From Candidatus Terasakiella magnetica (lineage in GTDB: Bacteria; Pseudomonadota; Alphaproteobacteria; Rhodospirillales; Magnetospirillaceae), in assembly GCA_902729415.1 (NCBI GenBank), contig LR746520.1, positions 68,728 to 100,727 on the forward strand: a stretch of DNA of 32,000 nt, in the 5' to 3' direction. Shown in pieces: positions 3,961-27,356 of the stretch. The notes under the pieces are model-generated. The model was not told the DNA's origin. It was given only the letters and a program-made list of their open reading frames with translations, and ran no database searches. Both the position numbers and the translations under genes were made by a program. Each line of letters opens with the position of its first letter. Positions within the stretch are counted from its first letter, which is position 1.

Positions 3961-4191
3961 GAAGCCCCCCTCGAAATGAGGTTCTGCCGCCCCCACGGCC
4001 TCAACGACCTTTCGTATAGCACCAAAGGTATAGCGCGAGGAAATGCGAATGCGACACCCGAGGCATGCCAAAATAAGCCGCTCTTTTTTGCGTGAATCAA
4101 AGAATCTCTGGCGGATTCAGACACAAAAGTTGTAACAAGCCTGCGTACAGTTGGGTGAATTGTCACTCCGCTGCGAGGAGTCTTGTTTCGC

Positions 4192-6341: not shown

Positions 6342-6343
6342 CC

Positions 6344-7198: not shown

Positions 7199-7229
7199 TA
7201 ATGCGAGGTCGGAAGTGTCTCCCAGTGAA

Positions 7230-9173: not shown

Positions 9174-9879
9174 ATCCCCCCCGTCCTTCCCCGACGCGTG
9201 CTGGGGAAGCGGCATTCCCTCCGGGGTGAAGATCGGGGTTCTGGTGGGGATGAAGAGCGAGGCGGCGCTGCTGCCGCCCGGTATGCCCCATGCCTGTACC
9301 GGCGGCATCCCGGCCCGGGCCGAGGCGCTGGCGCGGCGCTTGCTGGCAGAAGGCGCCGACGCCCTGATCAGCTTCGGCATTGCCGGGGGGCTCGACCCCG
9401 CCCGGCAGCCCGGCGACGTGGTGGTGGCCAGCGGCGTTCACGTGGACGGCGCGGTCATTCCGGCCAACAGCGTGTGGCATTGCCGCCTGATCTCGGCCAT
9501 CCCCTTTTCCCATTCCGGCCTGATCCTGGGGGCCGCCACGGTGGCGGCCGGCGCCCTCGACAAGCAGGCCCTGTTCAACGCGACCGGCGCGGTGGCGGTG
9601 GATATGGAAAGCGGCCCCCTGGCACGGGTGTGTGCCGAGGCGGGCAAGCCCTTCACGGTGCTGCGCGCCGTGGCCGACCCCGCCGGGCGGGGGTTGCCGC
9701 GCTCGGCCCTGTCGGGGCTGGACGCCCATGGCAACACCCGGCCCTGGGCGGTGATGGCGGGATTGATCCGCAGGCCGTGGGAATTGCCGGGATTGATCCG
9801 GGTCGGCCTGGACAGCCAGGCCGCCCTGTCGGCCCTAGGACATGCGCTTAAGGTTGTTGGTCCGACCTTCGGTCTGTAG
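9163..9879 (+). CDS. hpnG: Hopanoid-associated phosphorylase HpnG (PNP/MTAN-like nucleosidase acting on adenosylhopane)
   Basis: PNP_UDP-like pattern KIGVLVGMKSEA...ISFGIAGGL...AVAVDMESG. Immediately follows shc. The start is uncertain: ATG 9163 overlaps shc by 11 nt, and an in-frame GTG at 9226 (VKIGVLVG) is an alternative. Confidence 0.75.
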   Translation: MPSESPPSFPDACWGSGIPSGVKIGVLVGMKSEAALLPPGMPHACTGGIPARAEALARRLLAEGADALISFGIAGGLDPARQPGDVVVASGVHVDGAVIPANSVWHCRLISAIPFSHSGLILGAATVAAGALDKQALFNATGAVAVDMESGPLARVCAEAGKPFTVLRAVADPAGRGLPRSALSGLDAHGNTRPWAVMAGLIRRPWELPGLIRVGLDSQAALSALGHALKVVGPTFGL

Positions 9880-11016
9880 CGTCTCCAGGTTCTGGGCCAG
9901 CAACTGGTCGTAATTGTTGATGGCGGGACGCTGCTTGTCCAAGGGCAGATCCGGGGCCATGGGGCCTTCGGTCTTGGGGCCGCGCAGCGCCACCAGCGCC
10001 GCCTTCAGCGGATTGTTCAGCGTATCGGTGACGGCGGTGGCTTCATAGCCGGAATGCACCATGCAATCGGCGCACTTCTCGTACTTGCCGGTGCCATAGG
10101 ACTCCCAGTCGGTCTCGTCCATCAATTCCTTGTAGGACTTGGCATAGCCCTCGCCCAGAAGATAGCAGGGACGCTGCCAGCCGAACACGTTGCGGGTGGG
10201 ATTGCCCCAGGGGGTGCATTGATAGGTCTGATTGCCCGCCAGGAAATCCAGGAACAGCGATGATTGGGTAAAGGCCCAATTCTTGCCCTTGCCCAGGCTG
10301 AACAGCTTGCGGAACAGATCCTTGGTGGCGCGGCGGTTCAAGAAGTGCTCGCCATCCGGCGCCCGCTCATAGGCATAGCCTGGCGACAAGGTGATGCCCT
10401 CGACGCCGATGGACTGGGTGAAGTCGAAGAACTCGGCCATACGCCCGGCATCGGCGTTGTTGAACAAGGTGCAGTTGATATTGACCCGGAAGCCCTTGGA
10501 CTTGGCCAGTTTGATGGCCGCGACCGCCTGATCGAAGGTGCCGTCGCGCGACACGGCGCGGTCGTGGTCTTCGCGGTTGCCGTCCAGATGGACGGTCCAG
10601 GTGAAATAGGGATTGGGCTCGTACAGGTCGATCTTCTTTTCCAACAGCAGGGCGTTGGTGCAGAGATAGACGAATTTCTTGCGGGCGATGGCGCCCTTGA
10701 CGATCTGATCCATCTCGCGGTGCAGCAGGGGCTCGCCGCCCGCCATCACCACCACCGGGGCCGGGCACTCGTCGATGGAGGCCAGCGCCTCCTCCACCGA
10801 GATGCGCGAATTCAAGATGGAATCGGGATAATCGATCTTGCCGCAGCCGGCGCAGGTGAGGTTACAGCGGAACAGCGGCTCCATCATCAGCACCAGAGGA
10901 TAGTGCTTTACGCCGGAAAAATGCTGGCGCATGACGTAAAGGCCGATACGAAGGGTCTGGTGCAGGGGAACGGACACGGGCTTTACTCTATGCTTGCTGA
11001 TGGGCGGGCGGATCAT
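9835..11016 (-). CDS. hpnH: Adenosyl-hopene transferase HpnH (radical SAM)
   Basis: Radical SAM cluster motif CNLTCAGCGKIDYP preceded by YPLVLMMEPLFR. SAM-binding MAGGEPLL. C-terminal Cys-rich SPASM-like region (CTPWGNP...CYLL...CADCMVHSGYE). A GTG at 10977 (VSVPLHQ) is an alternative start. Confidence 0.9.
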   Translation of the reverse strand: MIRPPISKHRVKPVSVPLHQTLRIGLYVMRQHFSGVKHYPLVLMMEPLFRCNLTCAGCGKIDYPDSILNSRISVEEALASIDECPAPVVVMAGGEPLLHREMDQIVKGAIARKKFVYLCTNALLLEKKIDLYEPNPYFTWTVHLDGNREDHDRAVSRDGTFDQAVAAIKLAKSKGFRVNINCTLFNNADAGRMAEFFDFTQSIGVEGITLSPGYAYERAPDGEHFLNRRATKDLFRKLFSLGKGKNWAFTQSSLFLDFLAGNQTYQCTPWGNPTRNVFGWQRPCYLLGEGYAKSYKELMDETDWESYGTGKYEKCADCMVHSGYEATAVTDTLNNPLKAALVALRGPKTEGPMAPDLPLDKQRPAINNYDQLLAQNLETLQTEGRTNNLKRMS

Positions 11017-11134
11017 ACAGGGGCCGGTCCCGAGAGTTCAACACTTGAAGGAGTAAGGGTTTAGCCAAACATCACATGGCATCCATCCGCCGGAATATGT
11101 TATGGCACCCATTCCATGTTGGGAGTTCCATGAA

Positions 11135-11746
11135 ATGCGTTCCCGTCTCCTTGCCTCCATCGTCATGGGTTTCCTGGTCCTTGGGCTTCCCGGCATGTCC
11201 CATGCGGCGGAGCATCCTGCCGAGGCAGTGATCAGGCATCTGTGCGATACCCTGATCGAAATGATGAAGGCTGGTGACAAACTGGGCTTCAAGGGGCGGG
11301 TGGAAAAGCTGAAGCCGTTGATCCCCGCCGTCTACGACATGCCGTCCATGACCCAAAGCACCCTGGGCACCGCCATCGCCGCCAAGCTGACGCAAGACGA
11401 GACCGCCAAGCTGATCGACCTTTACACCCGCTTCTCGGTGGCGACCTATGCCTCGCAGTTCAATGACTGGGACGGCGAACGCTTCGAGATCGACGAGCCG
11501 CGCCCCTCCACCGCGGGCGCCATCATCCTGCCCAGCCGCATCGTGCCCAAGACGGGCGAACCCACCGAGATCCATTATGTGATGCGTCAGGAGCAGGGGC
11601 ACTGGAAAGTGGTCGACGTTCTATTCGAAGGCACCATCAGCCAAGTGGCGGTGCGGCGGTCGGAGTTCGTCTCGATCTTTCGGAGCAAGCAATTTTCCGG
11701 CCTGATGGAGGCCCTGGAAAAGCAAACCGCATCCCTGGAAAAATAA
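11135..11746 (+). CDS. hpnM: Periplasmic MlaC/Ttg2D-family lipid-binding protein, hopanoid-associated HpnM
   Basis: Signal peptide MRSRLLASIVMGFLVLGLPGMSHA/AE. The Ttg2D-like body is called on overall similarity as I recall the family; no signature motif was extracted. The gene lies directly upstream (2-nt gap) of hpnI-hpnJ. The ATG at 11135 gives a clean signal peptide; the ORF-track start is 11102. Confidence 0.65.
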   Translation: MRSRLLASIVMGFLVLGLPGMSHAAEHPAEAVIRHLCDTLIEMMKAGDKLGFKGRVEKLKPLIPAVYDMPSMTQSTLGTAIAAKLTQDETAKLIDLYTRFSVATYASQFNDWDGERFEIDEPRPSTAGAIILPSRIVPKTGEPTEIHYVMRQEQGHWKVVDVLFEGTISQVAVRRSEFVSIFRSKQFSGLMEALEKQTASLEK

Positions 11747-11748
11747 CC

Positions 11749-12903
11749 ATGTCCACCCTCTGGCAGGGGTTGTCCCTGCTGCTTCTGGCCCTGGCGGCGG
11801 CGGGATGCCTGTTTCAGGGCGCCGCTGCGCTGCTGGTGCGGCGCTTTGCCGCCGCCGCCCCCAAGCCCGCCACGGCACGGCCGCCCATCAGCGTGATGAA
11901 GCCGCTGTGCGGAGCGGAAGAGGGCATGGCGGAAAACCTGGCTTCGTGCCTGCGCCAGGACTATCCCGCCTTCCAGATGGTGTTCGGGGTGGCCGACCCC
12001 GCCGATCCGGCCCTGGCCGAGGTGGCACGGCTGCCCGCCGACCAGCCCGGACAAGAATTGGTCACGATCATCGAGCCCAAGCGGCATGGCCGCAACCTCA
12101 AGGTCGGCAATCTGCTCAACATGTGGCCCCAGGTCCGCCACGACCTCATCGCCATCGCCGACAGCGATATCCGAGTCGGCCCCCATTACCTGGATGACGT
12201 CGCGGCGCCCTTTGCCGACCCCGAGGTGGGCGTGGTCACCTGCCTTTATGTGGGGCGCCCGGTAGGCGGCATCTGGAGTGCGCTGGGGGCGTTGGGGATC
12301 AATCACGGATTTTTACCCTCGGCCCTGGTGGCGCGCGCTTTGGGCCGCAAGGACGGCTGCTTCGGCGCTACCATGGCGATCCGGCGCGCCACCCTGGAAC
12401 AAGGCGGCGGGCTGGCGGCACTGTCCGACATGCTGGCCGACGACTGGGCCTTGGGCGAGATGGCGCGCAAGCAGGGGCTTGGCATCGCCCTGGCGGCGCG
12501 GCCGGTGGACATCATGGTCCACGAGGCCGACCTCAAGACCCTGCTGGCTCATGAAATCCGCTGGGGCCGCACCATCGCGGCGGTGGACCGGCCCTCGTAT
12601 CTGGCTTCGGTCATCACCCAGCCGGTAGCGCTGGCGGCGCTGGCGGTGGTTGCCGGGGGAGCAGGTGCCCTGCCGTTGGCGGGGCTTGGCATCGCCGCCT
12701 TGTGCCGCATCGCCGTGGTGCGGGCCGAAGAGAAAGCCCTGATGCTGGAGCCGGTGGGGCTGGGCCTGCTGGCCTTGCGCGAAATTCTGTCCTTTATCGT
12801 CTATGTTGTCGCATCTTGCGGACGGAGTGTGGTATGGCGTGGCCGCCGATTCATCGTCCGCCGCGATGGAACTCTTGAGCTTGTTGAAGGTGGCACACCA
12901 TGA
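11749..12903 (+). CDS. hpnI: Hopanoid-associated glycosyltransferase HpnI (GT2, ceramide-glucosyltransferase-like)
   Basis: N-terminal TM helix, ISVMKPLCGAEEG, DxD motif IAIADSDI, HEIRWGRT, C-terminal TM helices. Stop overlaps the hpnJ start (ATGA at 12900). Confidence 0.8.
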   Translation: MSTLWQGLSLLLLALAAAGCLFQGAAALLVRRFAAAAPKPATARPPISVMKPLCGAEEGMAENLASCLRQDYPAFQMVFGVADPADPALAEVARLPADQPGQELVTIIEPKRHGRNLKVGNLLNMWPQVRHDLIAIADSDIRVGPHYLDDVAAPFADPEVGVVTCLYVGRPVGGIWSALGALGINHGFLPSALVARALGRKDGCFGATMAIRRATLEQGGGLAALSDMLADDWALGEMARKQGLGIALAARPVDIMVHEADLKTLLAHEIRWGRTIAAVDRPSYLASVITQPVALAALAVVAGGAGALPLAGLGIAALCRIAVVRAEEKALMLEPVGLGLLALREILSFIVYVVASCGRSVVWRGRRFIVRRDGTLELVEGGTP

Positions 12904-14330
12904 AGAAGACCCTTTTCCTCAATCCGCCCTCCTTTGAAGGATTCGACGGAGGAGCGGGCGCCCGCTATCAGGCCAAGCGCGAAATAAAATCCAACTGGTA
13001 TCCCACATGGCTGGCCCAGTTGGCCGCCTTGGTGCCTAATTCCAAGCTGGTGGATGCCCCGGCCAGCGGCAAGACCCTGGACGACATCGTCGCCATGGCG
13101 CCCGATTACGAGATGGTGGTGATTTACGCCAGTGCAGCCACCTACGCTTCCGAGGTCCGGGTGGTCGAGGCCATGAAGGCCGCCAATCCCAAGCTGATGG
13201 CCGGCATGGTCGGCGCCCACGTGGCGACAGTGCCCGAGCCCTCGCTGCTGGCGTCGCCCGCCATCGATTTCATCGCCCGCCACGAATTTGACTACACCAT
13301 CGTCGATGTGGCCGAAGGCAAGCCCTTCACCGAGATCGACGGCCTGACCTTCCGCGGCCCCGACGGTCAGCCGGTCCACACCAAGGACCGCGAACTGATC
13401 CACGACATGGACGCCCTGCCCTTCGTCGCCCCGATCTATCGCCGCGACCTCAACGTCGATGATTACTTCGTCGGCTATATCAAGCATCCCTATATGTCGT
13501 TCTATACCGGGCGCGGCTGCAAATCGAAGTGCAGCTTCTGCCTGTGGCCGCAGACCATCGGCGGCCGCGTCTACCGCGCCCGCAGCGCCGCCAAGGTGAT
13601 CGAGGAGGTCACCCAGGCCCGCGCGCTGTTCCCGGAAGTGAAGGAATTCTTCTTCGACGACGACACCTTCACCGACGATCTCGAACGGGTGGAGGAGATC
13701 GCCCGCGGCATCGGCAAGCTGGGGGTGCCGTGGTCGTGCAACGCCAAGGCCAATATTCCGCGCAAGACCCTGGAAGTGCTGAAGGCCAACGGCCTGCGGG
13801 TGCTGCTGGTGGGCTATGAATCCGGCGTGCAGGAGATCTTGAACAATATCCGCAAGGGCCTGCGCCTCGACATCATGCGCAAGTTCTCCCAGGACTGCCA
13901 CGAATTGGGCATCATCGTCCACGGCACCTTCATCGTCGGCCTGCCGGGCGAGACCAAGGAAACCATCCAGCAGACCCTGGCCTTCGCCAAGGAAGTCAAC
14001 CCCCGCACCCTTCAGGTATCCATGGCGGCGCCCTATCCCGGCACCGAGCTGTTCCAGCAGGCTATCGATAACGGCTGGTTCAAGCAGGATAAGGATCTGC
14101 TGATGCACGACGGCTGGCAGATGGCCGCCCTTAGTTACGAACACCTCAGCTCGGAAGACATCTTCAAGGCGGTGGCCGAGTTCTACAAGGCCTACTACTT
14201 CCGCCCCAGCAAGATCGGCGAGATCCTGTGGGAGATGCTGCACGACTGGGACATGATGAAGCGCCGCCTGCGCGAAGGCGTCGAGTTCTTCCAGTTCCTG
14301 CGGACCCGCGACAAAGCCTCCCAGTGCTGA
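12900..14330 (+). CDS. hpnJ: Hopanoid-associated B12-binding-domain radical SAM protein HpnJ
   Basis: N-terminus MKKTLFLNPPSFEGFDGGAGARYQAKREIKS is typical of HpnJ. Radical SAM motif GRGCKSKCSFCLWP. Length 476 aa. Followed by a strong terminator. Confidence 0.85.
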   Translation: MKKTLFLNPPSFEGFDGGAGARYQAKREIKSNWYPTWLAQLAALVPNSKLVDAPASGKTLDDIVAMAPDYEMVVIYASAATYASEVRVVEAMKAANPKLMAGMVGAHVATVPEPSLLASPAIDFIARHEFDYTIVDVAEGKPFTEIDGLTFRGPDGQPVHTKDRELIHDMDALPFVAPIYRRDLNVDDYFVGYIKHPYMSFYTGRGCKSKCSFCLWPQTIGGRVYRARSAAKVIEEVTQARALFPEVKEFFFDDDTFTDDLERVEEIARGIGKLGVPWSCNAKANIPRKTLEVLKANGLRVLLVGYESGVQEILNNIRKGLRLDIMRKFSQDCHELGIIVHGTFIVGLPGETKETIQQTLAFAKEVNPRTLQVSMAAPYPGTELFQQAIDNGWFKQDKDLLMHDGWQMAALSYEHLSSEDIFKAVAEFYKAYYFRPSKIGEILWEMLHDWDMMKRRLREGVEFFQFLRTRDKASQC

Positions 14331-14342
14331 GAGACGGAACAG

Positions 14343-14376
14343 AAAAAAAAGGCCGGGCAGATTGCCCGGCCTTTTT
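14343..14376. terminator. Bidirectional rho-independent terminator between the convergent hpnJ and HExxH genes
   Basis: A8 tract (14343-14350), 9-bp perfect GC-rich stem GGCCGGGCA (14351-14359), loop GAT, TGCCCGGCC (14363-14371), then T5 (14372-14376). It reads as stem plus U-tract on both strands. Confidence 0.85.
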
Positions 14377-14394
14377 ACTTTCAAGATATTGGCG

Positions 14395-15060
14395 TTACGA
14401 ATCCGCGAACCAACGGGCGAAAAAGGTGTCATCGCCCTCTTCGCGCAAGCCCATGGTCGGGCGGCCGTCGTCATCGATCAGGTCCATGGCGCGCAGCCAG
14501 CGCACGATCTTGCGGAAATGGCCGACATTGTGAAGGCTGGTGCCGCCTTCCAGCCAGTTCTGCTCGAGAAAGGCCAACACCGCCGGTTGGCCCAGATCGG
14601 CCTCCCACAGAATTCCCAGCAACGAGCACAGCCCCTCTTCCACATCACGTTCGGGACAGAACAGGGTCTGGGCGGCCTCGCCCTCGGCCTTGCGGCCCGA
14701 TTCGGGACCGGCGCCCAGGCCGAAATCGACCACCGTCCGGCGGGCGGGGGCGGCGCATTGGTAATGGGCCACCTCGTGGATCAGGACGCTGGGCTCCATA
14801 CGGATGGCGACCGCCTCTCCGTCCCAGGTGAAATAATCCTGGGGCCGCTCATCGATGATGCCAAAGCCGAAACGGCGGCACAATTCGACCCCTTGGGCAT
14901 GGTGACCGGGGTCGGTGGAAAGGCTGAGCAGATCCGAATCCGGCACCAGGGCGGTGACGCGGCGGAACACCTTCAGCGCCAGCGGATCGGAGGCCAAGGC
15001 CTGGGCAAAGTCATCGCTGATGCGAAACAGGGCGGAGTGATCGATGGGGGTCAAAATCAT
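14395..15060 (-). CDS. Hypothetical 221-aa protein with an HExxH metal-binding-type motif
   Basis: Clean ORF with an ATG start, divergent from the PPTase gene. Central segment VLIHEVAHYQCAAPARRTVVDFGLG contains HEVAH. No signal peptide or TM segment. Family not confidently recognised (see findings). Confidence 0.6.
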   Translation of the reverse strand: MILTPIDHSALFRISDDFAQALASDPLALKVFRRVTALVPDSDLLSLSTDPGHHAQGVELCRRFGFGIIDERPQDYFTWDGEAVAIRMEPSVLIHEVAHYQCAAPARRTVVDFGLGAGPESGRKAEGEAAQTLFCPERDVEEGLCSLLGILWEADLGQPAVLAFLEQNWLEGGTSLHNVGHFRKIVRWLRAMDLIDDDGRPTMGLREEGDDTFFARWFADS

Positions 15061-15176
15061 GATGGCCTGTCATATCGTCAGGCCACTGATCAGGTCAATG
15101 GGGGATCGGGCCGCCGGAATAATCTTGCGGGCGGGAGGCATCAGGCTCTATCACCTTCGCATCACCATTCCATACT

Positions 15177-15803
15177 ATGCCGAAGGCCGCCTTGCCCGCC
15201 ATTCGTCTGGATGCCGAGACCTGGCTCTACCAGGGAATCTTTGACCGTCCCAGCCTTCGTGAAGCGGCGGCGCGGCGGCATCTGGCTGGAATTCTCGGCT
15301 GTCCCGAGGATCAGATCCGCCTGAGCCGAGATCAATATGGCAAGCCCCGCCTTGCCGCCCCCCATGGCGGCCTGGACTTCAGTCTGGCCCGGCGCGGCGG
15401 CGTCCTGGTCATCGCCACGACCCGGAGCGGCACCGTGGGGGTGGATATGGAACAGATCGGCCAGTGCGATAATTGCGACGGCGTGGCGCGGGATTTTTTC
15501 GCACCGGCCGAGGCCCAGTGGCTCGTCACCCTGCCCCGGCCCGAGCGGCGCCGGGGCTTCGCGGCGCTGTGGACCGCCAAGGAAGCAGTGCTGAAGGCAC
15601 GGGGGCAAGGGATCGCCGCCGGATTATCCAATCCCGACCTGTCACCCTGGCTGGAAGACGGCAAGCCCCTCTGCCTCTCCCCCCTCCAACTCCAGTCGGG
15701 GGGAGACACTTATACTCTGGTCTGGTATACCCGCCCCCTGGAAGGGGATTCCGTCATGGTAGCCCGAGCGCAGGGATTGCCCGCGTCTCCCTTCAATCCT
15801 TGA
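15177..15803 (+). CDS. Sfp-type 4'-phosphopantetheinyl transferase
   Basis: PPTase motifs GVDMEQI (GxDxE) and WTAKEAVLKARG ((W/F)xxKE(A/S)xxK). Length 208 aa. The stop lies 6 nt before the NRPS start. Confidence 0.85.
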   Translation: MPKAALPAIRLDAETWLYQGIFDRPSLREAAARRHLAGILGCPEDQIRLSRDQYGKPRLAAPHGGLDFSLARRGGVLVIATTRSGTVGVDMEQIGQCDNCDGVARDFFAPAEAQWLVTLPRPERRRGFAALWTAKEAVLKARGQGIAAGLSNPDLSPWLEDGKPLCLSPLQLQSGGDTYTLVWYTRPLEGDSVMVARAQGLPASPFNP

Positions 15804-15809
15804 GAAGTC

Positions 15810-18800
15810 ATGCATCCTGTCGCTGCCCCAGAACCGTCGTCCCTGATCGGCCCCCGCGATCCCTCGCTGCTCCGTGATGAGCTGTTGTGGGAACTCTTCG
15901 CCGCCACCGTCGAACGCAGCCCCGATTCCATCGCCGCCACCTTCGGCGACCAAAGCCTCAGCTATGCCCAGTTGTCCGACCGGGCCGACCGGGTGGCGGG
16001 CGCCTTGGCGGCGCAGGGCATCGGGCGCGGCGCCTTCGTGGGCTTGTGGATGGCGCGCTCGCTCGATCTGCATGTGGCGCTGCTGGGCATCCTCAAGACG
16101 GGCGCCGCCTATATTCCCTTTGATACCGACGCGCCGCCCGAGCGAGTGGGCGAGTGCCTGAGCGATTGCTCGGCCGCCGCTATCATCTTGGACGCCACCA
16201 CCGCCGGCGCGGTGGAACGCTCCCTGCCCGCCCCGGCGCTGCTGCTGCCCGCCTTGGCCGAGGCGGAGCCGTCCTCGCCCTGCCCCGATCCGCGTGCTGC
16301 CGGGGCAGATCCCTTTGATCCCGCCTATGCCATCTACACCTCGGGCTCCACCGGCAAGCCCAAGGCCATCGTCATCAACCACCGCAACATCTGCCACTAT
16401 CTGCGCTCGGCCAATTCCCTTTACGGTATCGGCCCCACGGATGTGGTGTTCCAGGGGGCCTCGGTAGCGTTCGACCTGTCGCTGGAAGAGATCTTCATCC
16501 CCTATCTGGTGGGGGCGTCCTTGTGGATCGGCGGCCGTCAGACCCTGGCCGAGACCGAAACCCTGCCCGACGTACTGACCAGGGCCGGAATCACCGTCCT
16601 CGACACCGTGCCTACCCTGCTGTCGCTGCTGCCGCGCGACGTGCCCGGCTTGCGGGTCATCATCCTGGGCGGCGAGGCCTGCCCCTCGGCCCTGGCGGAA
16701 CGCTGGTGCCGTCCGGGGCGGCGCATCTTCAATTCCTACGGCCCCACCGAGGCCACCGTGGTCGCCACCATGGCGGAAGTGCGCCCCGGCGAGACGGTGA
16801 CCATCGGCGGCCCTATTCCCAATTACGCCTGCTGGGTGGTGGACGATACCCTGGCCCCGGTGGCGCCCGGTACCCAGGGTGAGCTGTTGATCGGCGGCCC
16901 CGGCGTGGCTTCGGGCTATCTGGGCCGGGCCGAGCTGACCGCCGAGAAGTTCATCCCCAATCCGTGGCCTCATGACGGCCTGTCGCCCATGCTCTACCGC
17001 TCGGGCGATGCGGTCAGCATCGACGCGAACGGCAATCTGGCCTTCCACGGCCGCATCGACGATCAGGTCAAGATCCGCGGCTTCCGCGTCGAACTGGGCG
17101 AGATCGAGGCCCGCCTCGCCGCCCTGCCCGGCCTGACCCAGGCGGCGGTCCTGCTGCGCACCGATGACGGTATCGAGCGTCTGGTGGCCTGCGTCGTCAC
17201 CGAGCCGGGGGTGGGACTGGACACCGCCGCCTTGCGCGAGCAGCTGCGCGAGCAGCTTCCCGCTTATATGGTGCCGTCGCATCTTCTGGCTCTGCCCGAA
17301 CTACCGCGCCTGATCTCGGGCAAGCTGGACCGCAAGGCACTCAAGCTGGTGCCGCTGGGCTCGATCGCCGCCGAGGCCCAGGAACAGCCGGAAACCGAGA
17401 GCGAAGCCGCCCTGCTGCAAGCGGCCCAGCGCGTTTTTCCCGGTCAATCCATTGCCTTCGATGCCGATTTCTTCATTGATCTCGGCGGTCATTCCCTGCT
17501 GGCTGCCAAGTTCGTCTCGGCTGTGCGCGAGACCCCGGCCCTGGCCAGCCTGACCTTGAACGAGATTTACGGCCTGCGCACCCTGCGCGCCATGGCCGCC
17601 CTGCTCGACACCCGCAGGCCCGCCCCCGGCGCCAAAGCCGCAGATCTATCCTTCACGCCGCCCTCGCTGCTGCGCCGCTTCCTGTGCGGCGCGGCCCAGG
17701 CGGTCGCCATGCCCATCATCCTGGCGCTGACCACCGCGCCGTGGCTGGGGGTGTTCATCAGCTACATGCTGTTGTCGGGCGACGAGGCCGGGCCGCTGGC
17801 CGAGGTGGTGACCCTGCTGCTGACCTATGCCGTCATCAATATCGGCACCATCGTTTTGTCCATCGTGCTGAAATGGCTGGTTCTGGGCCGGACCAAGCCG
17901 GGCCGCTACAAGCTGTGGGGCGTTTATTATTTCCGCTGGTGGCTGGCGCAAAGGGTGGTCAGCATCGCCCATATCAAGTGGTTCCAGGGCACGCCGATCA
18001 TGAGCATGTATCTGCGGGCCTTGGGTACCAAGGTCGGCAGCGACTGCAACATTTCCGAGGTGGAAAGCGGCGCCTTCGATCTGGTTTCCATCGGCCAGGG
18101 CGTGGTGATCGGCGGCAAGGTCCGCCTTGCCAATGCCGAGGCCATCGGCGACGAGTTGGTGATCGGCACCATCGATCTGGGCGACGACAGCTATGTCGGC
18201 ACCTCGTGCATCCTCAGCCACGATGTGGTGGTCGAAGACGGCGGCGAGCTTGCGGACATGACCGCCCTGGCCGCCGGAACGCGGGTGGGCCGGTTCGAAC
18301 ATTGGGAAGGCTCGCCCGGCCGCAAGATCGGCGTGATCGACGAATCCTCCCTGCCCGAAGCCGCCCATGCCGGGCCAGGCCGCAAGGTCGCGCTGACCGT
18401 GCTGTACCTGTTCTTGCTGGTGGTGCTGCCGCCTATCAGCCTGATGCCTATCTTCCCGGCCTTCTTCCTGTTCGACAATCTCAGCGAGATCATCGCGGGC
18501 ATCGGCGGGCCGCAGGACTATCTGTACATCCTGCCGCTGCTGGCCTGGCCCACCGCCATGGCCCTGATCGTCATCACCGTGCTGCTGATCGCTGCCGTGC
18601 GCTGGACGGTGCTGCCGGTGGTGACCGCAGGGAGCTATTCGGTCTATAGCGGCTTTTACGTCCGCAAGTGGGTCGTCGCCCTGGCGACCGAGTTGATGCT
18701 GGAAACCCTGTCATCGCTCTACGCCACCGTCTATATGCGGCTGTGGTACCGCCTGATGGGCGCCAAGATCGGTAAGGACGCGGAAATCTCCTGCAATCTG

Positions 18801-19805
18801 TCGGGCCGCTACGACCTGACCGAAATCGGCGAGAAATGCTTCATCGCCGACGAGGTGGTGCTGGGCGACGAAACGGTGCGGCGCGGCTGGATGCACCTGG
18901 AGCCGGTCAAGACCGAGGCCTGCGTCTTCGTCGGCAACGACGCGGTGGTACCGCCGGGCTCGGTCATCCCCACCGGCACCCTGATCGGCATCAAATCGCT
19001 GCCGCCCGCCAATCATCTGATGCAACCGGGCGACACCTGGTTCGGCAGCCCCCCCATGAAGCTGCCGGTGCGCCAGCGCTTCGACGACGTCACCGCCAAC
19101 TGGACCTATGCGCCGCCCCTGTGGCGCCGCTGGTGGCGGGCAGTGTTCGAAGCCTTCGCCGTATCGCTGCCCAGCATGCTGTTCATTACCTTCGGCATCC
19201 TCAGCGTCGAAGTGCTGGCGCCGTCGATCCTGCGCCGCGACTACCCCGCGACCCTGGCGCTGTTCGTGGCCGCCAGCGTCGCCATCTCGTTCGCCCTGGT
19301 CACCGCCTCCATCACGGTCAAGTGGCTGATGATGGGCGTCTACCGCCCCACCGCCAAGCCCATGTGGTCGTGGTGGGCGTTGCGCACCGAAGCGGTGGCG
19401 GTGATGTATTGGGGGCTGGCGGGCAAGGTGCTGCTGGATCACCTGCGCGGCACGCCGTTCCTGCCCTGGGTGCTGCGCCTGTTCGGCTGCCGCTTTGGCG
19501 CGGGCGTCTTCATGGACACCACCGACATCACTGAATTCGACTGCATCGATGTGGGCGATTTCTGCGCCATCAACTCGCTGTCGGCGCTGCAAACCCACCT
19601 TTACGAAGACCGCGTCATGAAGGTGGGCCGCGTCAGCCTGGGAACCGGCGTCACCGTGGGCAGCGGCTCGACCGTGCTTTACGATACCCATCTCGGCGAT
19701 TTCTCCCGCATCGGCAAGCTGACCATCGTCATGAAGGGCGAGTTCATCCCGGCCCATAGTCAGTGGGAAGGCGCCCCCGCCCAGACGGCGCCCGCCGCCC
19801 CATGA
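15810..19805 (+). CDS. Single-module NRPS of the epsilon-poly-L-lysine synthetase (Pls/PosA) type: A domain, T domain, six TM helices interleaved with three tandem hexapeptide-repeat acyltransferase-like domains
   Basis: A-domain cores [83 protein letters not shown]. T-domain core [12 protein letters not shown]. Three soluble blocks then follow, each bracketed by pairs of hydrophobic helices. I found no HHxxxDG condensation motif and no thioesterase GxSxG. Confidence 0.85.
   Translation: [1331 protein letters not shown]
15900..17330 (+). other. Adenylation (AMP-binding) domain of the Pls-like NRPS
   Basis: Core motifs A1 to A10 as listed for the CDS. Specificity-pocket codons run from D222 (nt 16473) to K505 (nt 17322). 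Confidence 0.85.
17400..17610 (+). other. Thiolation (PCP) domain; predicted phosphopantetheine attachment Ser at nt 17493-17495
   Basis: [45 protein letters not shown] contains the LGGHSL core. The Ser codon TCC is at 17493-17495. Confidence 0.8.
17679..19802 (+). other. Membrane-embedded polymerisation region: TM1-TM2, C1-like (about 17900-18340), TM3-TM4, C2-like (about 18650-19070), TM5-TM6, C3-like (about 19350-19802)
   Basis: Hydrophobic helices: [157 protein letters not shown]. Each soluble block carries hexapeptide-like [LIV]-G-x4 repeats (for example [44 protein letters not shown]). Boundaries are approximate. Confidence 0.7.
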
Positions 19806-20041
19806 GCGGCGACATCCGCAAGCGCTCGGTGGTGATCGCGGGCCATGCCACCAGCATCACCCTGGAGGCCCCGTTCTGGGACGAACTGAGGGAAATGGCC
19901 GAGGCGCGCGGCCTGTCGCTCAATCAGATGGTGGCCGAGATCGATCAGGGCCGCAGCGGCAACCTATCGTCAGCCATCCGGGTTTTTGTTCTCAGCGAGA
20001 TCAAGCGCTTAGCCGCCGACGATCGCGGTACGGACAGGTAA
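19802..20041 (+). CDS. Ribbon-helix-helix domain protein (RHH_4-like), 79 aa
   Basis: The sequence KRSVVIAGHATSITLEAPFWDELREMAEARGLSLNQMVAEIDQGRSGNLSSAIRVFVL matches the stand-alone alphaproteobacterial RHH family as I remember it. The ATG at 19802 overlaps the NRPS stop (ATGA), which I prefer to the ORF-track start at 19763. Confidence 0.7.
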   Translation: MSGDIRKRSVVIAGHATSITLEAPFWDELREMAEARGLSLNQMVAEIDQGRSGNLSSAIRVFVLSEIKRLAADDRGTDR

Positions 20042-20521: not shown

Positions 20522-20548
20522 CCGCTTCGGGAACCAAAGTCCTCCCGA

Positions 20549-21691
20549 TCACCCCATCAGATCCGGCATCTCCTTGGCCAAGCTCTGACGCTCGGCAGCG
20601 CGGCGGCCCGAAAGGGCAAAGCCCAACGCCGTGCCGTCGGCCCCCACGAACAGCGCCTTGCGGTCCCGGCCCTCGCCTTCGACCCGCCATTCGCCCGCCT
20701 TGCCGGGAGCGGGCGGGCACACCGCCACGGCAAGCGCCGGTGTCTTGACCACCACCGGCAGGGCGGGCAGACTCAGCGCGGTCTCGGTTCCGGCCAGGGT
20801 GAAGGCCAGAGCCTTGGCCTCGGCCATCAGCGGCAACACGAAAGGCAGCGGTCCGGCCTCGGTCTGGGCGCAATCACCCAGGGCGAAGATGGCGGGATCG
20901 GAGGTCCGCAAGGTCCGGTCCACCACGATCCCCTTGTCCACCGCCAAGCCCGCTTGCCGCGCCAGGTCCAGCCTTGGCACCAGACCGATGGCCGACAACG
21001 CGTGGTCGAAGGCGATTTCGCTGCCGTCATCCAGCACCGCCTTACCGGGCGCGATCCGCACCACCGAACGGCCAAGATGCAAGGCGATGCCGATCCCGCC
21101 CAAAGCGGCGGCGACTTCCTCGCCGACCTCGCGCGGCAACAGACGGCCCAGGGGCCAGGGGGCGGGATCGACCACGCTGACCCCATACCCGGCGGCGGCA
21201 AGATCATTGGCGAATTCGCAGCCGATCAGCCCCGCCCCGATCAGCAAGATGCGCGATGACGTCCCGATCAGCGCCCGCCAGCGGGCGTAATCGTCGAGGT
21301 CGTTGACGCTGTGGATGGTGACGCTCTCGCTTCCCGCGACGCCATAGGGGCGCGGATCGGCGCCGACCGCCAGGACCAAGTGGTCATAGCCAAGCCCGAT
21401 GCCGTCATCAAGGACCACCTGCCGGGCGGCCCGATCGATACGTTCCACCCGACGCCGCGCCAGAACCCGCAGCCGAAGATCCTCCTCCACCTGTCCGCAT
21501 CCCTTCTGGACCAGGGTCAGGGCGGTCTTGCCCTGGGCGAAGGCCGCCGACAGCATGGGCTTGCTGTAGGCCTCGCCGCCATCGGCGGTCACCACGGTGA
21601 TGGCGACCGCCCCATCCAGCTTGCGGAGTTCACGGGCGAGGGTATAGCCCCCCAACCCGCTCCCCACGATGACCACGCCACCGGACGACAT
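20549..21691 (-). CDS. Rubredoxin-NAD(P)+ reductase (FAD-dependent pyridine nucleotide-disulfide oxidoreductase family)
   Basis: FAD-binding GxGxxG (VVIVGSGLGGY) at the N-terminus, a second dinucleotide fold ILLIGAGLIGCEFA, and GDCA near the C-terminal third. Length 380 aa. The ATG at 21691 lies 4 nt after the rubredoxin stop. The ORF-track N-terminal extension to 21850 is an out-of-frame read through the rubredoxin gene. Confidence 0.85.
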   Translation of the reverse strand: MSSGGVVIVGSGLGGYTLARELRKLDGAVAITVVTADGGEAYSKPMLSAAFAQGKTALTLVQKGCGQVEEDLRLRVLARRRVERIDRAARQVVLDDGIGLGYDHLVLAVGADPRPYGVAGSESVTIHSVNDLDDYARWRALIGTSSRILLIGAGLIGCEFANDLAAAGYGVSVVDPAPWPLGRLLPREVGEEVAAALGGIGIALHLGRSVVRIAPGKAVLDDGSEIAFDHALSAIGLVPRLDLARQAGLAVDKGIVVDRTLRTSDPAIFALGDCAQTEAGPLPFVLPLMAEAKALAFTLAGTETALSLPALPVVVKTPALAVAVCPPAPGKAGEWRVEGEGRDRKALFVGADGTALGFALSGRRAAERQSLAKEMPDLMG

Positions 21692-21695
21692 GATC

Positions 21696-21860
21696 TTAAC
21701 CTTCCTGAACTTCAAAATCGGACTTGGACACGCCGCAATCGGGGCAGGACCAATCGTCGGGGATATCCTCGAAGGCGGTCCCCGCCGGGATACCCTCGTC
21801 GGGCAGGCCGACCGTGGGGTCATAGACGAAACCGCAGACGACGCAGACATACTTCTTCAT
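21696..21860 (-). CDS. Rubredoxin, 54 aa (not in the supplied ORF track)
   Basis: My own minus-strand translation gives [54 protein letters not shown]. It has both CxxCG knuckles (CVVCG, CPDCG) and the conserved YDP...F.D.PDDW.CP. GAGGAG lies 7 nt upstream of the ATG. Confidence 0.92.
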
Positions 21861-21911
21861 GGTTCTTCTCCTCAATAATATCTGTTCCTCAGTGCCGGGC
21901 GGGAGGCTGTT

Positions 21912-22391
21912 TCAGCCGCCCTTATGGGCCGCCAGGGTATCGCGGTAGTGGTTGGCGTGCTTTTCCTCCACCTTGGCCAGGGCGGCAAAGCGCTTGGCGG
22001 CGGTGGCGAGAATCTTGGCGAAGCGCTCGGCATGCTCCTTGGATTCGGCGATCTGCTCGTCGATCTCGGCCACGGCGGCGCTGTGACCTTCCTGCTCGGC
22101 CAGATGACGGAACTGCGGATACATCTCGGTGTATTCATAGGTCTCGCCGTCGATGGCCATCTGAAGCATCGTCTCCACCGTCAGTTCGTCCTTGGGATAG
22201 AGCAGGTCAAGATGACCGAAGGCGTGCGCCGTCTCCTGCTCGGCGGTACGCTCGAACACCTCGGCCACCGCCACCGCACCCAATTCGCGCGCCCGGCGGG
22301 CGAAATAGAGGTATTTGCGGTTGGCCATGGACTCGCCCGCGAAGGCGGCTTCAAGATTCTTGATGGTGGGGGATGTGGTGGTGGGGGCCAT
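21912..22391 (-). CDS. Rubrerythrin-family diiron protein lacking the C-terminal rubredoxin domain (erythrin-like)
   Basis: N-terminus IKNLEAAFAGESMANRKYLYFA. Diiron ligand motifs EQETAH (ExxH), GETYEYTE (ExxE) and EEKHANH (ExxH). It ends ...AAHKGG with no CxxC pairs. Confidence 0.88.
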   Translation of the reverse strand: MAPTTTSPTIKNLEAAFAGESMANRKYLYFARRARELGAVAVAEVFERTAEQETAHAFGHLDLLYPKDELTVETMLQMAIDGETYEYTEMYPQFRHLAEQEGHSAAVAEIDEQIAESKEHAERFAKILATAAKRFAALAKVEEKHANHYRDTLAAHKGG

Positions 22392-22846: not shown

Positions 22847-24259
22847 TTATTGTGCCTGCCAGCCGCCGCCCATGGCCTTATAAAGCCCGACCAAGGCCTG
22901 AAGATGCAGCAAGCGGGCCTGGGCCAGGGCATCTTGGGACGAGAACAGCGTTTTTTGGGTATTGAGAACGCTGGTGACATCGACGATACCGCCCGCCATC
23001 TGGGCCTGAGCGATCTCGAAGCCGCGCCGGGCCGTGGACTCGGCCAGCTTCTGGGCCGTCACTGCTTCCGCCGTCTTTTCCACCGCGATCAGGGCGTTCT
23101 CCACATCGGAGAAGGACGACACCACCGCCTTGCGGTAGGTCTGAGCCAATTCATCGAAGCGGGCGCGCTTTTGCTCCACCGTTCCGGCGATCTTGCCGTT
23201 ATCGAAGATGGGCTGGGTCAGAGACGATGCCACCGACCACAACAGGGAATCGTGACGCATCATCCGCAACAGATCGAGGCTTTGAAAGCCGGTCTGGGCC
23301 GTCAACTGGATCGAAGGAAACCACGCGGCGCGGGCCACCGCCACATCGGCATTGGCGGCACGCAGTTGCGCCTCGGCGGCCTGGACATCGGGGCGGCGCA
23401 TCAGCAATTCCGACGGCAGCCCCGGCGCAGGAATCGGAAGGCGCAGATCATCCAGACGTTCCGGCACCAGCGTCAATTCCTCGGGCATGCGGCCCAACAG
23501 AATGGCCAAGGCGTTGAAATCCTGACGCATCTGCTGTTCCAGCGGCGGCAGGGCGGCGCGCTGGCCCACAACCACGCTTTCTTGCTGGGTCACATCCAGC
23601 GAGGTGGCGGTCCCGGCCATCTGACGGTCGCGGATCACCGCCAGCACGCTTTCCGAATTGGTGATGCTTTCACGGGCCAGCCGCAGCCGCTCCTGCAATC
23701 CCAGGATATCGAAATAGGTGGTGGCGATGCTGGAGTGAACGGTCAGATATACGGTCTGCTGGTCAAAGCGGCTGGCCTGGGCGGCGGCTTCGGCGGCTCC
23801 GGCGGCGGCGGTGTTCTTGCCCCAGAAATCGACCTCATAGCTGGCGCTGAGCAGGGTATTGGTCGAGGTGGAATGGGTGGCCTTGGTGATGGGCCGGGCC
23901 GAGGATGAGGAAGAGGAACTGGCGGCCATGGAGCTGCGCGAGCGGGTCACCCCGGCGCTGCCCGACAGGCTGGGCAACAGCGGCGCCCCGGCGATGGTGG
24001 CCTGGGCATCTGCCTGACGCACGCGGGCCATGGCTGCGGCAAGGTCGAAATTGGTCTTGACCGCCTGGGCCATCATCTCGTCCAGACGCACCGAGCCGAA
24101 CGCGCGCCACCACTCGGCCGACGGCCATGCCGCCTGAGCCTGGGGTGACGCCGGATTCTTCCAGGCGGCGGGGGGCTTGGCCTCGGGGCGGACATAGGGG
24201 TCGCCCACCGAACATCCCGACAGCAGCAGCACTGCCAGGGCCACGGATACCTTCTTCAT
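22847..24259 (-). CDS. RND efflux outer-membrane lipoprotein (NodT/OprM family)
   Basis: Lipoprotein signal MKKVSVALAVLLLSGC/S (lipobox LSGC). Two TolC-like repeats. The C-terminus LYKAMGGGWQ is typical of the family. The ATG at 24259 overlaps the mdtC stop by 1 nt. The ORF-track extension to 25042 is spurious. Confidence 0.88.
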   Translation of the reverse strand: MKKVSVALAVLLLSGCSVGDPYVRPEAKPPAAWKNPASPQAQAAWPSAEWWRAFGSVRLDEMMAQAVKTNFDLAAAMARVRQADAQATIAGAPLLPSLSGSAGVTRSRSSMAASSSSSSSARPITKATHSTSTNTLLSASYEVDFWGKNTAAAGAAEAAAQASRFDQQTVYLTVHSSIATTYFDILGLQERLRLARESITNSESVLAVIRDRQMAGTATSLDVTQQESVVVGQRAALPPLEQQMRQDFNALAILLGRMPEELTLVPERLDDLRLPIPAPGLPSELLMRRPDVQAAEAQLRAANADVAVARAAWFPSIQLTAQTGFQSLDLLRMMRHDSLLWSVASSLTQPIFDNGKIAGTVEQKRARFDELAQTYRKAVVSSFSDVENALIAVEKTAEAVTAQKLAESTARRGFEIAQAQMAGGIVDVTSVLNTQKTLFSSQDALAQARLLHLQALVGLYKAMGGGWQAQ

Positions 24260-27200
24260 CACGAATTTCCTTCCGTCACCCCGGTGCCGCGGCTCTGCCA
24301 CCAGCGCTTGGCGCGGGCCAGCGACAGATAGACCACCGGAGTGGTGTACAAGGTCAGCAACTGGGACAGCAGCAAGCCGCCGACAATGGCAATACCCAAA
24401 GGTTGGCGCAGGGCACCGCCCGGACCCGAGGCCAGGGCCAGCGGCACCGCCCCCAGCAGCGCCGTCGCCGTGGTCATGGTAATGGCGCGGAACCGGGTAT
24501 GGCAGGCGGCCAGAATAGCCTGATCGGGGGTGGCCCCGGCCCGTTCGGCCTCGATGGCGAAATCCACCAGCAAGATGCCGTTCTTCTTGACGATGCCCAT
24601 CAGCAGGAAGACGCCGATAACGCTGATCAGGGTCAGCTCGGTGCCGGTGATCATCAGCGCCAGTAAGGCACCGATTCCCGCAGACGGCAGGGTCGAGATG
24701 ATGGTCAGAGGGTGCAGCATGCTTTCGTACAGCATCCCCAGCACGATATAGATCGCCAGCAAAGCGGCGCCGATCAGGATGGGCTGGTCGCGCAGACTTT
24801 CGGCGAACACTTTGGCGTTGCCAGCGAATTCCCAGTGAACCCCGGCGGGAAGACCGATAGCCCGCGCCGCACCTTGCAGACGTTCCGCCGCTTCGCCCAG
24901 CGGCGTGCCCGGCGCCAGATTGAAGGTCAAGGTCGCCGCCGGGAACTGGCTTTGGTGGGCCACCGTCACCGGCGCGGTGGTGGTTTCGATGCGGGCCAGG
25001 GATTCCAAGGGCACCTGGGTACCATCTTTGGCCTTGACCCACAGGGCCTTCAGCGCCGACGGATCTTCCTGCTGGGCCGGGTCCACCTCCAGCACCACCT
25101 TGTACTGATTGCGCTGGGTATAGATGGTCGAGACCTGACGCTGGGCGAAGGAATCCTGCAACACCTGATCGATGTCGGTGACGTTGACTCCCATGCGGGC
25201 GGCGGCGTCACGATCGATCACCACCTGAATCTGGGGAATGGCCGAATCCTGGTCACTGGAGACATCCACCAGCCCCGGCTCGGCCTTCAGGCGCGCCACC
25301 AGCTTGGGTGTCCACTCGCGCAGCTCTTCCAGGGATTCGTCCCACAGCACGAACTGGAACTGGGCCTTGCCCATGCGGCCGCCGATACGGATATCCTGGC
25401 CGGGGAACATGAACACCGCCACGCCCGCCACCTCGGCCAGCTTGGGCCGCAGGCGGTTGATCACCTCCTGGGCGCTGGCCTTGCGCTGGGACAAGGGCTT
25501 GAGGCTGATGAACATGCGTCCCTGATGGCCGGTGCCGAAGCCCCCCGCCCCCACGAACGAGCCCAGCCCCTCCACCCCCGGATCGGACAGCACCACCTCG
25601 GCAACCTTCTGCTGACGTTCGGAAATGGTGCGAAACGAGATATCCACCCGCCCCTCGATGGTAGCGAAGACCAGACCGGTGTCTTGGGGCGGAAAGAAGC
25701 CCTTGGGTACCGCGCCATAGAGGGTGACGGTCAGTGCCACCGTCGCCACCACCACCGCCAGCATGAAACGCTGATGGGCCAGCACCCATACCAACCCGGA
25801 TTCGTAGGAGCGCTGCATGGCCGTCAGCACCGCCTCGCCTCCCCGCGCCAGAATCGAGGGCGGGCGCGCCTGCCTGCGGCTCATGAGATGCCCGAACAAG
25901 GTCGGCGTCACCGTCAAAGACACCAGCGCCGAAGCCACGATAGCCACCGACAAGGTGACGGCGAATTCGCGGAACAACCGCCCCAGGATGCCGCCCATGA
26001 ACAGCAGCGGAATGAATACCGCCACCAGCGACAAGGTGATGGAGACCACGGTGAAGACGATTTCGCGCGCGCCCTTGACCGCCGCCTCCAGAGGGCTTTC
26101 GCCGTTTTCCATGTGCCGCGTGATGTTCTCGATCATGACGATGGCGTCATCGACCACGAAACCGACCGAGATGGTGACCGCCATCAGCGAGATGTTGTTG
26201 AGGCTGTAGCCCATCAGCCACATGACGGCGAAGGTCACGGCCAAGGACAGCGGTACCGTGATCGACGCCGCCAAGGTCGGCGTCAGCCGCCCCAGCGACA
26301 GATAGACCACCAGGATCACCAGAGCGATGGAGATCATCAAGGTGGTCTCCACATCCTCCAGATTCCCCCGGATATTGCCGGTACGGTCCGACAGGATGGT
26401 GACCTTGGTTCCGGCGGGCATCCACCGCCGCAACTGGGGCAGGATCTCCTTGATGCCGTCCACGGTCTCGACCACATTGGCGCCCGGCTGCTTGTTGATG
26501 ATCACCAGCACGGCACGGTCGCGGTTAAACCAGCCGCCCAGGCGCGAGTTCTCGGTGGCATCCACCACCTTGGCCACCGCCGACAACCGGACGACGGCGC
26601 CGTTGGCGGCGCGCACCACCAAGGGCGCATAGCCCGAAGCGGTAAAGAGCTGGTCATTGATGCCGATGGACAGCGCCTCGGTCTCACCGTCGAAGCCGCC
26701 TTTGGGCATGTCCACATTGGCCTGGGCCAGGGTGGTGCGCACATCCTCCATGCCCAGCCCCATGGCTGCCAGGGCCTGGGGATTGACCCGCACCCGGACG
26801 GCGGGCTTCTCGGCGCCGCTCAAGGTCACCTGCGCCACCCCGGAAACCTGGGAGATGCGCTGGGCCAGAATGGAATCTGCTGCGTCGTAGACCTTGCTGG
26901 GCGGCAAGGTGTCCGAGGTCACCGCCAGAATCAGGATTGGCGATTCCGCCGGATTGACCTTGCGGTAGGTAGGCGGCTGGGGCAGGTCCAGCGCCAGTTC
27001 GGCGGCTGCGGAATTGATCGCCGCCTGAACGTCGTGGGCAGCGCCATTAATGTCGCGGTCGAGATCGAACTGCACCGTGATTGAGGTCGCGCCCTGGGTG
27101 CTGGTCGAGGTCAGCTCGGCCACACCCGGGATCTCGCCCAGCCTGCGCTCCAGCGGCGCCGCCACCGTCGCCGCCATGGTCTCCGGGTTGGCGCCGGGCA

Positions 27201-27351: not shown

Positions 27352-27356
27352 CGCCC

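Follow-up and report, generated by a model that had tools for sequence, protein, structure and literature searches.

The window, as we call the whole stretch of DNA analysed here, comprises 32,000 nucleotides of contig LR746520.1 from Candidatus Terasakiella magnetica, and our concern is with three open reading frames (ORFs) that follow one another on its plus strand at 15177-20041 (Table 1). They encode a 4'-phosphopantetheinyl transferase (PPTase), a non-ribosomal peptide synthetase (NRPS) and a ribbon-helix-helix (RHH) protein, and together they probably constitute an operon for a cationic homo-poly(amino acid) (CHPA) synthetase of the Pls/PosA family. The genes are tightly packed, just as an earlier reading made from the letters alone (the sequence-only reading) had described. 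The PPTase gene closes with a TGA at 15801-15803 and the NRPS gene opens with an ATG at 15810, leaving a gap of 6 nt. The third frame is listed as 19763-20041 (+), and its most plausible start is likely the ATG at 19802, which overlaps the NRPS stop codon (TGA, 19803-19805) as ATGA.

Table 1. Features of the synthetase operon and its upstream boundary (window coordinates; residue numbers are those of the synthetase, fragment and query positions those of its C-terminal domain)
Feature	Coordinates	Strand	Basis
Boundary element outside the operon: 14-bp GC-rich hairpin with flanking A-runs/T-runs	14346..14376	.	terminator scan
Intergenic region, presumed promoter/operator	15061..15176	+	gene layout only
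Sfp-type 4'-phosphopantetheinyl transferase, 208 aa	15177..15803	+	PF01648 ACPS, E 3.7e-16
NRPS, 1331 aa	15810..19805	+	ORF list
Adenylation domain, residues ~26-512	15885..17345	+	TIGR01733, PF00501, PF13193
Thiolation (carrier) domain, residues 544-599	17439..17606	+	PF00550, E 3.5e-7
Transmembrane hairpin 1 (TM1-TM2), residues ~621-692	17670..17885	+	hydropathy; AlphaFold helices at fragment positions 2-36, 43-73
Soluble block C1, residues ~693-855, left-handed beta-helix	17886..18374	+	model strands, fragment positions 132-223
Transmembrane hairpin 2 (TM3-TM4), residues ~856-934	18375..18611	+	hydropathy; AlphaFold helices at fragment positions 237-276, 282-315
Soluble block C2, residues ~935-1103, left-handed beta-helix	18612..19118	+	model strands; PDB left-handed beta-helix matches, query 390-503
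Transmembrane hairpin 3 (TM5-TM6), residues ~1104-1174	19119..19331	+	hydropathy; AlphaFold helices at fragment positions 485-522, 526-555
Soluble block C3, residues ~1175-1331 + stop codon, left-handed beta-helix	19332..19805	+	Pfam Hexapep at 1275-1302
RHH_4 ribbon-helix-helix protein, 79 aa	19802..20041	+	PF13467, E 4e-26

The synthetase begins with one complete adenylation (A) domain, which scores 400 bits against TIGR01733 (cutoff 317) and displays the core motifs A3, A4, A5, A7, A8 and A10. A single thiolation (T, or carrier) domain follows, recognised by PF00550, in which the motif LGGHSL at residues 558-563 places the phosphopantetheine-attachment residue, Ser562, at nt 17493-17495. 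A scan of all 1331 residues brought up neither HHxxxDG nor GxSxG, no match to the Condensation or Thioesterase families of Pfam, and no reductase domain. The inventory drawn up previously (one A domain, one carrier domain, and neither condensation motif nor thioesterase) is borne out by these motif and profile searches.

It is the 712 residues behind the T domain that assign the protein to its family. Against the NCBIfam model TIGR02353, "Pls/PosA family NRPS", they score 572.2 bits with a curated cutoff of 423.1, and residues 629-1324 align with model positions 2-695 of 695, so that the Pls-like domain order proposed earlier now has a match to the full model behind it. Kyte-Doolittle hydropathy analysis resolves six hydrophobic segments in three pairs (~624-655/663-694, 858-889/904-942 and 1111-1142/1145-1177), and this 2-2-2 pattern, which had been anticipated, recurs in the AlphaFold model. 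The sequence-only reading had envisaged three hexapeptide-repeat blocks, each bracketed by pairs of helices. Blocks and helices are indeed there in those numbers, but the bracketing gives way to a hairpin ahead of each soluble block, in the order TM1-TM2-C1-TM3-TM4-C2-TM5-TM6-C3 (TM, transmembrane segment).

Built on an alignment of 60 diverse relatives drawn from a representative library of 1.84 billion proteins, the AlphaFold model of the C-terminal domain reaches a mean predicted local distance difference test score (pLDDT) of 94.8 and a predicted TM-score (pTM) of 0.93; an earlier alignment of six sequences, 64-70% identical, had yielded a pLDDT of 36 and was unusable. The model consists of three long helical hairpins (pLDDT 79-98 in the block of hairpin 1), each succeeded by a block rich in short beta-strands, a left-handed beta-helix (LbH), and the fold agrees with the published model of PosA (PMC10522769). 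Given that A and T are cytoplasmic domains and that the loops within the hairpins are very short, all three soluble blocks should, on this model, be cytoplasmic.

The soluble blocks align with one another, C3 and C1 being 27% identical (E 8e-10), and each has the fold of the LbH acyltransferases, among them CysE, the maltose/galactoside O-acetyltransferases and the sugar N-acyltransferases AntD and QdtC. By sequence, the PDB offers matches of C1 to gamma-carbonic anhydrase and hexapeptide transferases (query positions 130-243) and of C3 to acetyltransferases (614-708), and Foldseek, too, matches C1 to LbH proteins. Taken over the whole domain, Foldseek against the PDB returns only LbH proteins, mostly acyltransferases and gamma-carbonic anhydrases, which cover one block each (E ~1e-4, TM-score to target up to 0.56, identity 13-21%); the likeness of C1, C2 and C3 to LbH proteins is weak by sequence, and also by fold. 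Neither the sequence search nor Foldseek found in the PDB a solved structure spanning the entire C-terminal domain. In the homotrimeric LbH acyltransferases a pantetheine thioester, acyl-CoA, acylates an amine or a hydroxyl, and this is the chemistry that we propose for the synthetase's C-terminal domain. The latter differs in having three beta-helices fused in one chain, with six membrane helices as an anchor, and its thioester donor would be protein-bound as opposed to acyl-CoA.

In the family alignment of 60 sequences the window protein keeps all 15 invariant columns together with the ~60 near-invariant ones reported. Conservation peaks in C3, at TEFD (1241-1244) and residues 1260-1271, the whole motif spanning residues 1241-1271 (window 19530-19622). 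When the three units are aligned with one another, the His motif of TEFD...QTHLYEDR appears in the third block only, C1 and C2 having no equivalent, and H1263, D1244, E1266 and R1268 are candidate catalytic residues. Because the invariant His/Asp/Glu/Arg motif is confined to the third beta-helix block, the pseudo-trimer may possess a single catalytic site, with C1 and C2 taking structural or substrate-channel roles.

Two characterised enzymes frame the comparison. PosA, the delta-poly-L-ornithine synthetase of Acinetobacter baumannii AB307-0294 (ATY43264.1), was characterised in 2023 by Patel & Gulick, with A-domain structures 8G95-8G98 (PMC10522769); its sequence is used here as given in the supplement of that paper. 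The window protein is 39.7% identical to PosA over residues 14-1324, the two are 1331 and 1332 residues long, and both are built as A-T-(TM2-LbH)x3. They have in common the pocket Asp and Glu, a hydroxyl residue kept at position 322, and a Gram-negative host. posA is a single-gene unit, however, whereas the window synthetase has a PPTase gene on one side and, on the other, an RHH gene coupled to it in translation. The second enzyme is Pls from Streptomyces albulus (BAG68864.1), which makes epsilon-poly-L-lysine and is the prototype of iterative polymerisation without a template, the donor being T-bound and the acceptor free. Pls has the same architecture and falls under the same NCBIfam model, although its host, unlike that of the window protein, is an actinomycete. 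Searched against the PDB, the window A domain matches the PosA A-core (8G95) with 360 bits (E 2e-106) and the Pls A domain (7WEW) with 275 bits (E 9.5e-81).

The protein has close kin in quantity. It is identical to NCBI record CAA7628006.1, labelled [quoted passage not shown], and its next relatives, 75-83% identical, are from Magnetospirillum, Paramagnetospirillum and Phaeospirillum, with further ones in Telmatospirillum, Azospirillum, Chelatococcus, Alsobacter and many Beijerinckiaceae and Methylocystaceae. Full-length orthologues at 60-83% identity span many genera. In the representative library the family amounts to 620 clusters (50% identity) at E <= 1e-30, with 61% identity to the window protein in its own clade and 46% in the sister clade, and a scan with one genome per species finds the clade in at least 361 species genomes. 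The Gram-negative host, previously thought out of the ordinary, is accordingly nothing unusual, the more so as PosA itself comes from A. baumannii (PMC10522769). The operon is also less novel than previously supposed: PosA was already characterised, and many orthologues already bear the NCBI name "Pls/PosA family non-ribosomal peptide synthetase". Indeed, published work already covers the family and its architecture, its occurrence in Gram-negative bacteria and proteobacteria, and even this pocket signature (PMC10522769).

A side observation concerns the host. The window has ~64-65% G+C, and all its close homologues (75-83%) belong to Magnetospirillum, Paramagnetospirillum or Phaeospirillum; the organism label of the CAA7628006.1 record may be wrong, or the contig mis-assigned.

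Gene neighbourhoods were compared over the best 80 loci of the 361 relatives (81 with the window), which are labelled Alphaproteobacteria almost throughout. When flanking ORFs within 6 kb are clustered, no gene family keeps company with the synthetase throughout the clade. Lineage-specific synteny accounts for the largest clusters of neighbours (an SDR oxidoreductase, fumarase, chorismate synthase, a pseudouridine synthase, a sigma/anti-sigma pair), and no transporter, peptidase or precursor-pathway gene is linked to the synthetase within that distance in the 81 loci. In most genomes the synthetase stands alone, like Pls and posA.

The two companion genes of the window operon differ in how faithfully they are retained. 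The PPTase has the ACPS domain, a length within ~200-240 residues and the two motifs, VGVD at residue 87 and WTAKEAVLK at residue 132, that mark the Sfp-type (group II) enzymes; its best NCBIfam matches, HetI and AcpT, both fall under their cutoffs. A PPTase homologue directly upstream of the NRPS is found in five of the 81 loci, namely the window and the loci L002, L003, L004 and L037, and the label "dedicated", which the sequence-only reading had attached to this gene, has to be dropped for a synthetase that is mostly alone. In L003 (Paramagnetospirillum kuznetsovii, 7680-8153) the homologue is shortened to 157 residues (HMM E 3e-31) and runs into the NRPS start codon; it may be decaying or N-terminally truncated, which would fit repeated loss within the clade. 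The RHH protein scores 91.3 bits against PF13467 (threshold 25) over model positions 2-66 of 67. Its gene lies behind the synthetase in nine of nine loci of the Magnetospirillum/Phaeospirillum group, the window counted: the ATGA overlap is kept in the window and in L001-L004, while in L005, L006, L007 and L009 the gene lies within ~15 nt of the NRPS stop. Judged by its domain, the RHH_4 protein, translationally coupled to the synthetase, is most likely a DNA-binding regulator of the operon.

The substrate pocket was read by motif homology to PosA and GrsA, and gives the specificity code DLEDIGSVVK (D222, L223, E226, D265, I285, G287, S309, V317, V318 and K505). Code positions 1 and 3 are D222 and E226, within FDLSLEE; in PosA the corresponding Asp217 and Glu221 bind a diamino acid by its alpha-amine and its side-chain amine (PMC10522769). 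In 57 of the 81 loci, across two orders, the code is exactly the same, so it is under selection; most of the remaining loci have conservative variants. Near-identical pockets are known from other alphaproteobacteria: Rhizobium hainanense WP_075855952.1 has DLEDIGTVVK, one residue away, and Methylobacterium sp. WP_056379773.1 a pocket of the type DLEDIGTV(T/V/I)K, both tabulated as "uncharacterized binding pocket" (PMC10522769, Supplementary Table 2). Within the window clade, DLEDIGTVVK occurs exactly in L066 and DLEDLGTVVK in others.

With this domain architecture, a family match over the full model, the gene order and coupling, and intact catalytic motifs, a three-gene CHPA operon is the probable reading of the locus. 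The earlier expectation of an uncharacterised homopoly(amino acid) as product is supported, and no test directed against it succeeded; searches of the literature on Magnetospirillum, Azospirillum, Methylobacterium, Rhizobium, Methylocystis and TIGR02353 yielded no characterised orthologue, whether making a polymer or anything else. By analogy with Pls and PosA, the PPTase would presumably attach phosphopantetheine to Ser562, converting the apo T domain to its holo form, after which the A domain would adenylate one basic amino acid and load it onto the T domain as a thioester. The C-terminal domain, envisaged as a single-chain pseudo-trimer of left-handed beta-helices at the cytoplasmic face of the six membrane helices, would then use the T-bound thioester as acyl donor, akin to the acyl-CoA of LbH acyltransferases. 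A side-chain amine, either on a free monomer or on the oligomer as it grows, would serve as acceptor, at one active site probably involving the invariant TEFD...QTHLYEDR motif of the third block, and short, isopeptide-linked cationic chains of variable length would be released to the outside. Such thioester chemistry is plausible because of the structural kinship with LbH acyltransferases, which use a pantetheine thioester.

Several points weigh against this reading, or against parts of it. DLEDIGSVVK equals none of the six experimentally assigned CHPA codes, which are DAESIGTVVK for Lys, DMEHNGTVSK for ornithine (Orn), DFECLSAVTK for 2,4-diaminobutyrate (Dab), DFECLSCVSK for D-Dab, DFEYVGTVTK for 2,3-diaminopropionate (Dap) and DGESVSVVNK for beta-Lys. 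The position of PosA Ser313, the loss of which costs that enzyme 183-fold in kcat/KM (PMC10522769), is Val in the window protein, which speaks against a simple PosA-like ornithine pocket. The PPTase, linked to the synthetase as seldom as it is, is not a defining part of the system, and a regulatory function for the RHH protein is suggested by its Pfam family. A promoter scan of the region upstream of the operon (15061-15176) showed no sigma-70 consensus site. Finally, polymerisation, linkage type, chain length and export are, for this clade, what homology to characterised relatives would predict.

Because the pocket matches none of the assigned codes, any substrate call is weak. In PosA, code position 2 sets the accepted chain length, with Ala for Lys, Met for Orn and Phe for Dap or Dab, and the M218A variant of PosA uses Lys ~10-fold better (PMC10522769). 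With Leu at position 2 of the window code, Lys is therefore disfavoured and a diamino acid of shorter chain favoured. At position 4 some Orn-activating domains of other NRPSs have an acidic residue, as does the window protein (Asp265). Judging by these residues, we put ornithine or 2,4-diaminobutyrate at slightly better than even. Ornithine is the leading, if weak, guess, because the gene usually stands alone, without linked precursor-biosynthesis genes, as would suit a universal metabolite. Even so, the window protein is not to be filed as a PosA orthologue, because its code departs from DMEHNGTVSK (Met218, Thr304, Ser313) at five of ten positions, with Val for Ser313 and Asp for His260 among the changes. 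We would lean against the tentative idea that the DLED pocket is selective for a monomer new to natural cationic homopolymers. Some other substrate, for instance arginine or a modified basic amino acid, is unlikely.

A plain epsilon-poly-L-lysine synthetase, which would put the Streptomyces Pls product into an alphaproteobacterium, is less likely still. Seven of the ten code positions are as in Pls, I, G, V, V and K among them, and lysine, a universal metabolite, fits a stand-alone gene. The three departures are Leu at position 2 (Ala in Pls), Asp at position 4 and Ser at position 7, and it is the first of these that tells: a bulky residue at position 2 disfavours Lys in PosA, and all Lys-type representatives examined have Ala there. 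In the C-terminal domain, moreover, identity to the PosA type (36-39%) exceeds that to the Lys type (30-35%), and a rough neighbour-joining tree sets the window clade beside PosA-type (DMEHNGTVSK) and not beside Lys-type sequences.

The other alternatives concern what, if anything, the membrane domain does with its amino acid, and here the setting of the operon matters. The sequence-only reading had placed it between hopanoid and oxidative-stress genes. The gene content on either side is as it stated, yet the setting is not conserved, and a terminator and a divergent gene intervene. Upstream, hpnJ ends at 14330 and is followed by the hairpin of Table 1 and then by a minus-strand ORF (14395-15060) divergent from the PPTase gene. 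Terminator and divergent ORF thus make the NRPS operon a transcription unit separate from the hpn cluster, and its position beside the hopanoid genes looks incidental. An Rfam search upstream of the operon for a riboswitch or leader, which might have hinted at the substrate, found none, only sub-threshold matches on the terminator hairpin.

Two side observations belong to this boundary. The hairpin is a perfect 14 bp, AAAAAGGCCGGGCAATCTGCCCGGCCTTTTT; placed where hpnJ and the minus-strand ORF converge, it is a terminator for both directions, and nine sub-threshold Rfam matches to small RNAs and leaders are explained by it. The ORF at 14395-15060 encodes 221 residues of protein-like composition, with only a sub-threshold match to EpmC (E 0.002). 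None of the 80 related loci contains a homologue of this ORF, which may therefore have been inserted, in this genome specifically, between the hpn genes and the NRPS operon.

With hpnI-hpnJ 850 bp upstream of the operon, one may ask whether the membrane domain moves its T-bound amino acid to some other amine acceptor in the envelope, such as the amine-bearing bacteriohopanepolyol that is the hpnI/hpnJ product. To our knowledge, the aminoacylation of aminobacteriohopanetriols has been assigned to no enzyme. The attraction of the idea is that such N-aminoacyl aminotriols exist: N-ornithinyl, N-tryptophanyl and N-phenylalanyl aminobacteriohopanetriols occur in some Alphaproteobacteria (PMC12583986), and a membrane-embedded domain resembling LbH acyltransferases could in principle reach a lipid acceptor. 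In its specific form, the synthetase would load a basic amino acid, e.g., ornithine, onto glucosaminyl or cyclitol-ether bacteriohopanepolyols, instead of or besides making free polymer, and would then be the enzyme behind N-aminoacyl hopanoids. We consider the general form very improbable and the specific form no less so. A tblastn search of the 80 related loci finds no HpnH, HpnI or HpnJ, and shc comes within 8 kb only in L001 and L002, on the other strand; hopanoid linkage as a conserved feature is therefore rejected. The two units are parted by the bidirectional terminator and the divergent ORF, and every invariant of the polymerising family is kept. The survey that reported aminoacyl hopanoids saw them only in Rhodomicrobium and Variibacter, although it also took in Magnetospirillum fulvum and Azospirillum brasilense, species with orthologues of the synthetase (PMC12583986).

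Least likely of all is a silent or catalytically dead gene, a remnant without product: the lack of a consensus promoter site and the "hypothetical" name of the NCBI record would suit it, but the level of conservation makes it implausible, with the 1331-codon ORF and all A, T and C-terminal invariants intact, full-length orthologues at 60-83% identity in many genera, a conserved specificity code, and translational coupling to the neighbours preserved.

If the operon is indeed a CHPA operon, its interest lies in the product. We know of only seven natural polymers of the CHPA class, each made by one enzyme of the family; among these, epsilon-poly-lysine is sold commercially to preserve food. The present clade is large and tightly conserved in Magnetospirillum, Azospirillum, methanotrophs and others, which are common soil, rhizosphere and freshwater bacteria. 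Knowledge of its product would give the specificity code a further rule, for Leu at position 2 combined with Asp at position 4, and might bring to light a new cationic biopolymer, and the compact PPTase-synthetase pair is a convenient cassette for heterologous expression.

Further observations were made on the rest of the window. The hopanoid cluster occupies 4183-14330 and comprises hpnA (4183-5184), hpnB (5181-6341), hpnD (6296-7198), shc (7185-9173), hpnG (9163-9879), hpnH on the minus strand (9835-11016), an hpnM-like gene (11102-11746), hpnI (11749-12903) and hpnJ (12900-14330), all above their NCBIfam cutoffs. It has a single squalene-synthase-like gene, hpnD, and between hpnB and shc there is neither a separate hpnC nor a separate hpnE. 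hpnK, expected behind hpnJ, is not recognisable, and the ORF at 14362-15324 has no family match. Near the start of the window, a plus-strand ORF of 560 residues (259-1941) matches nothing in Pfam or NCBIfam and sits beside a methyl-accepting chemotaxis protein on the minus strand (1978-4071). In sequence of 65% GC, this ORF could be either a real orphan gene or spurious.

Downstream of the operon, the minus strand at 20549-22391 encodes a FAD oxidoreductase resembling NorW or rubredoxin reductase (20549-21850) and a rubrerythrin (21912-22391), which look like an oxidative-stress pair, and a terminator-like hairpin lies at 20525-20539. Paramagnetospirillum marisnigri (L004) has this arrangement behind its RHH gene as well, and rubrerythrin/reductase and RND efflux genes downstream are common to the window and this locus only. 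The efflux genes form an MdtABC-type RND operon on the minus strand at 22847-31678, with an adaptor (30434-31678), two permeases (27357-30437 and 24259-27351) and a NodT-family outer-membrane factor. The NodT ORF (22847-25042, 731 residues) overlaps the permease gene and its NodT domain begins at residue 269, and for these reasons its true start probably lies much further downstream.

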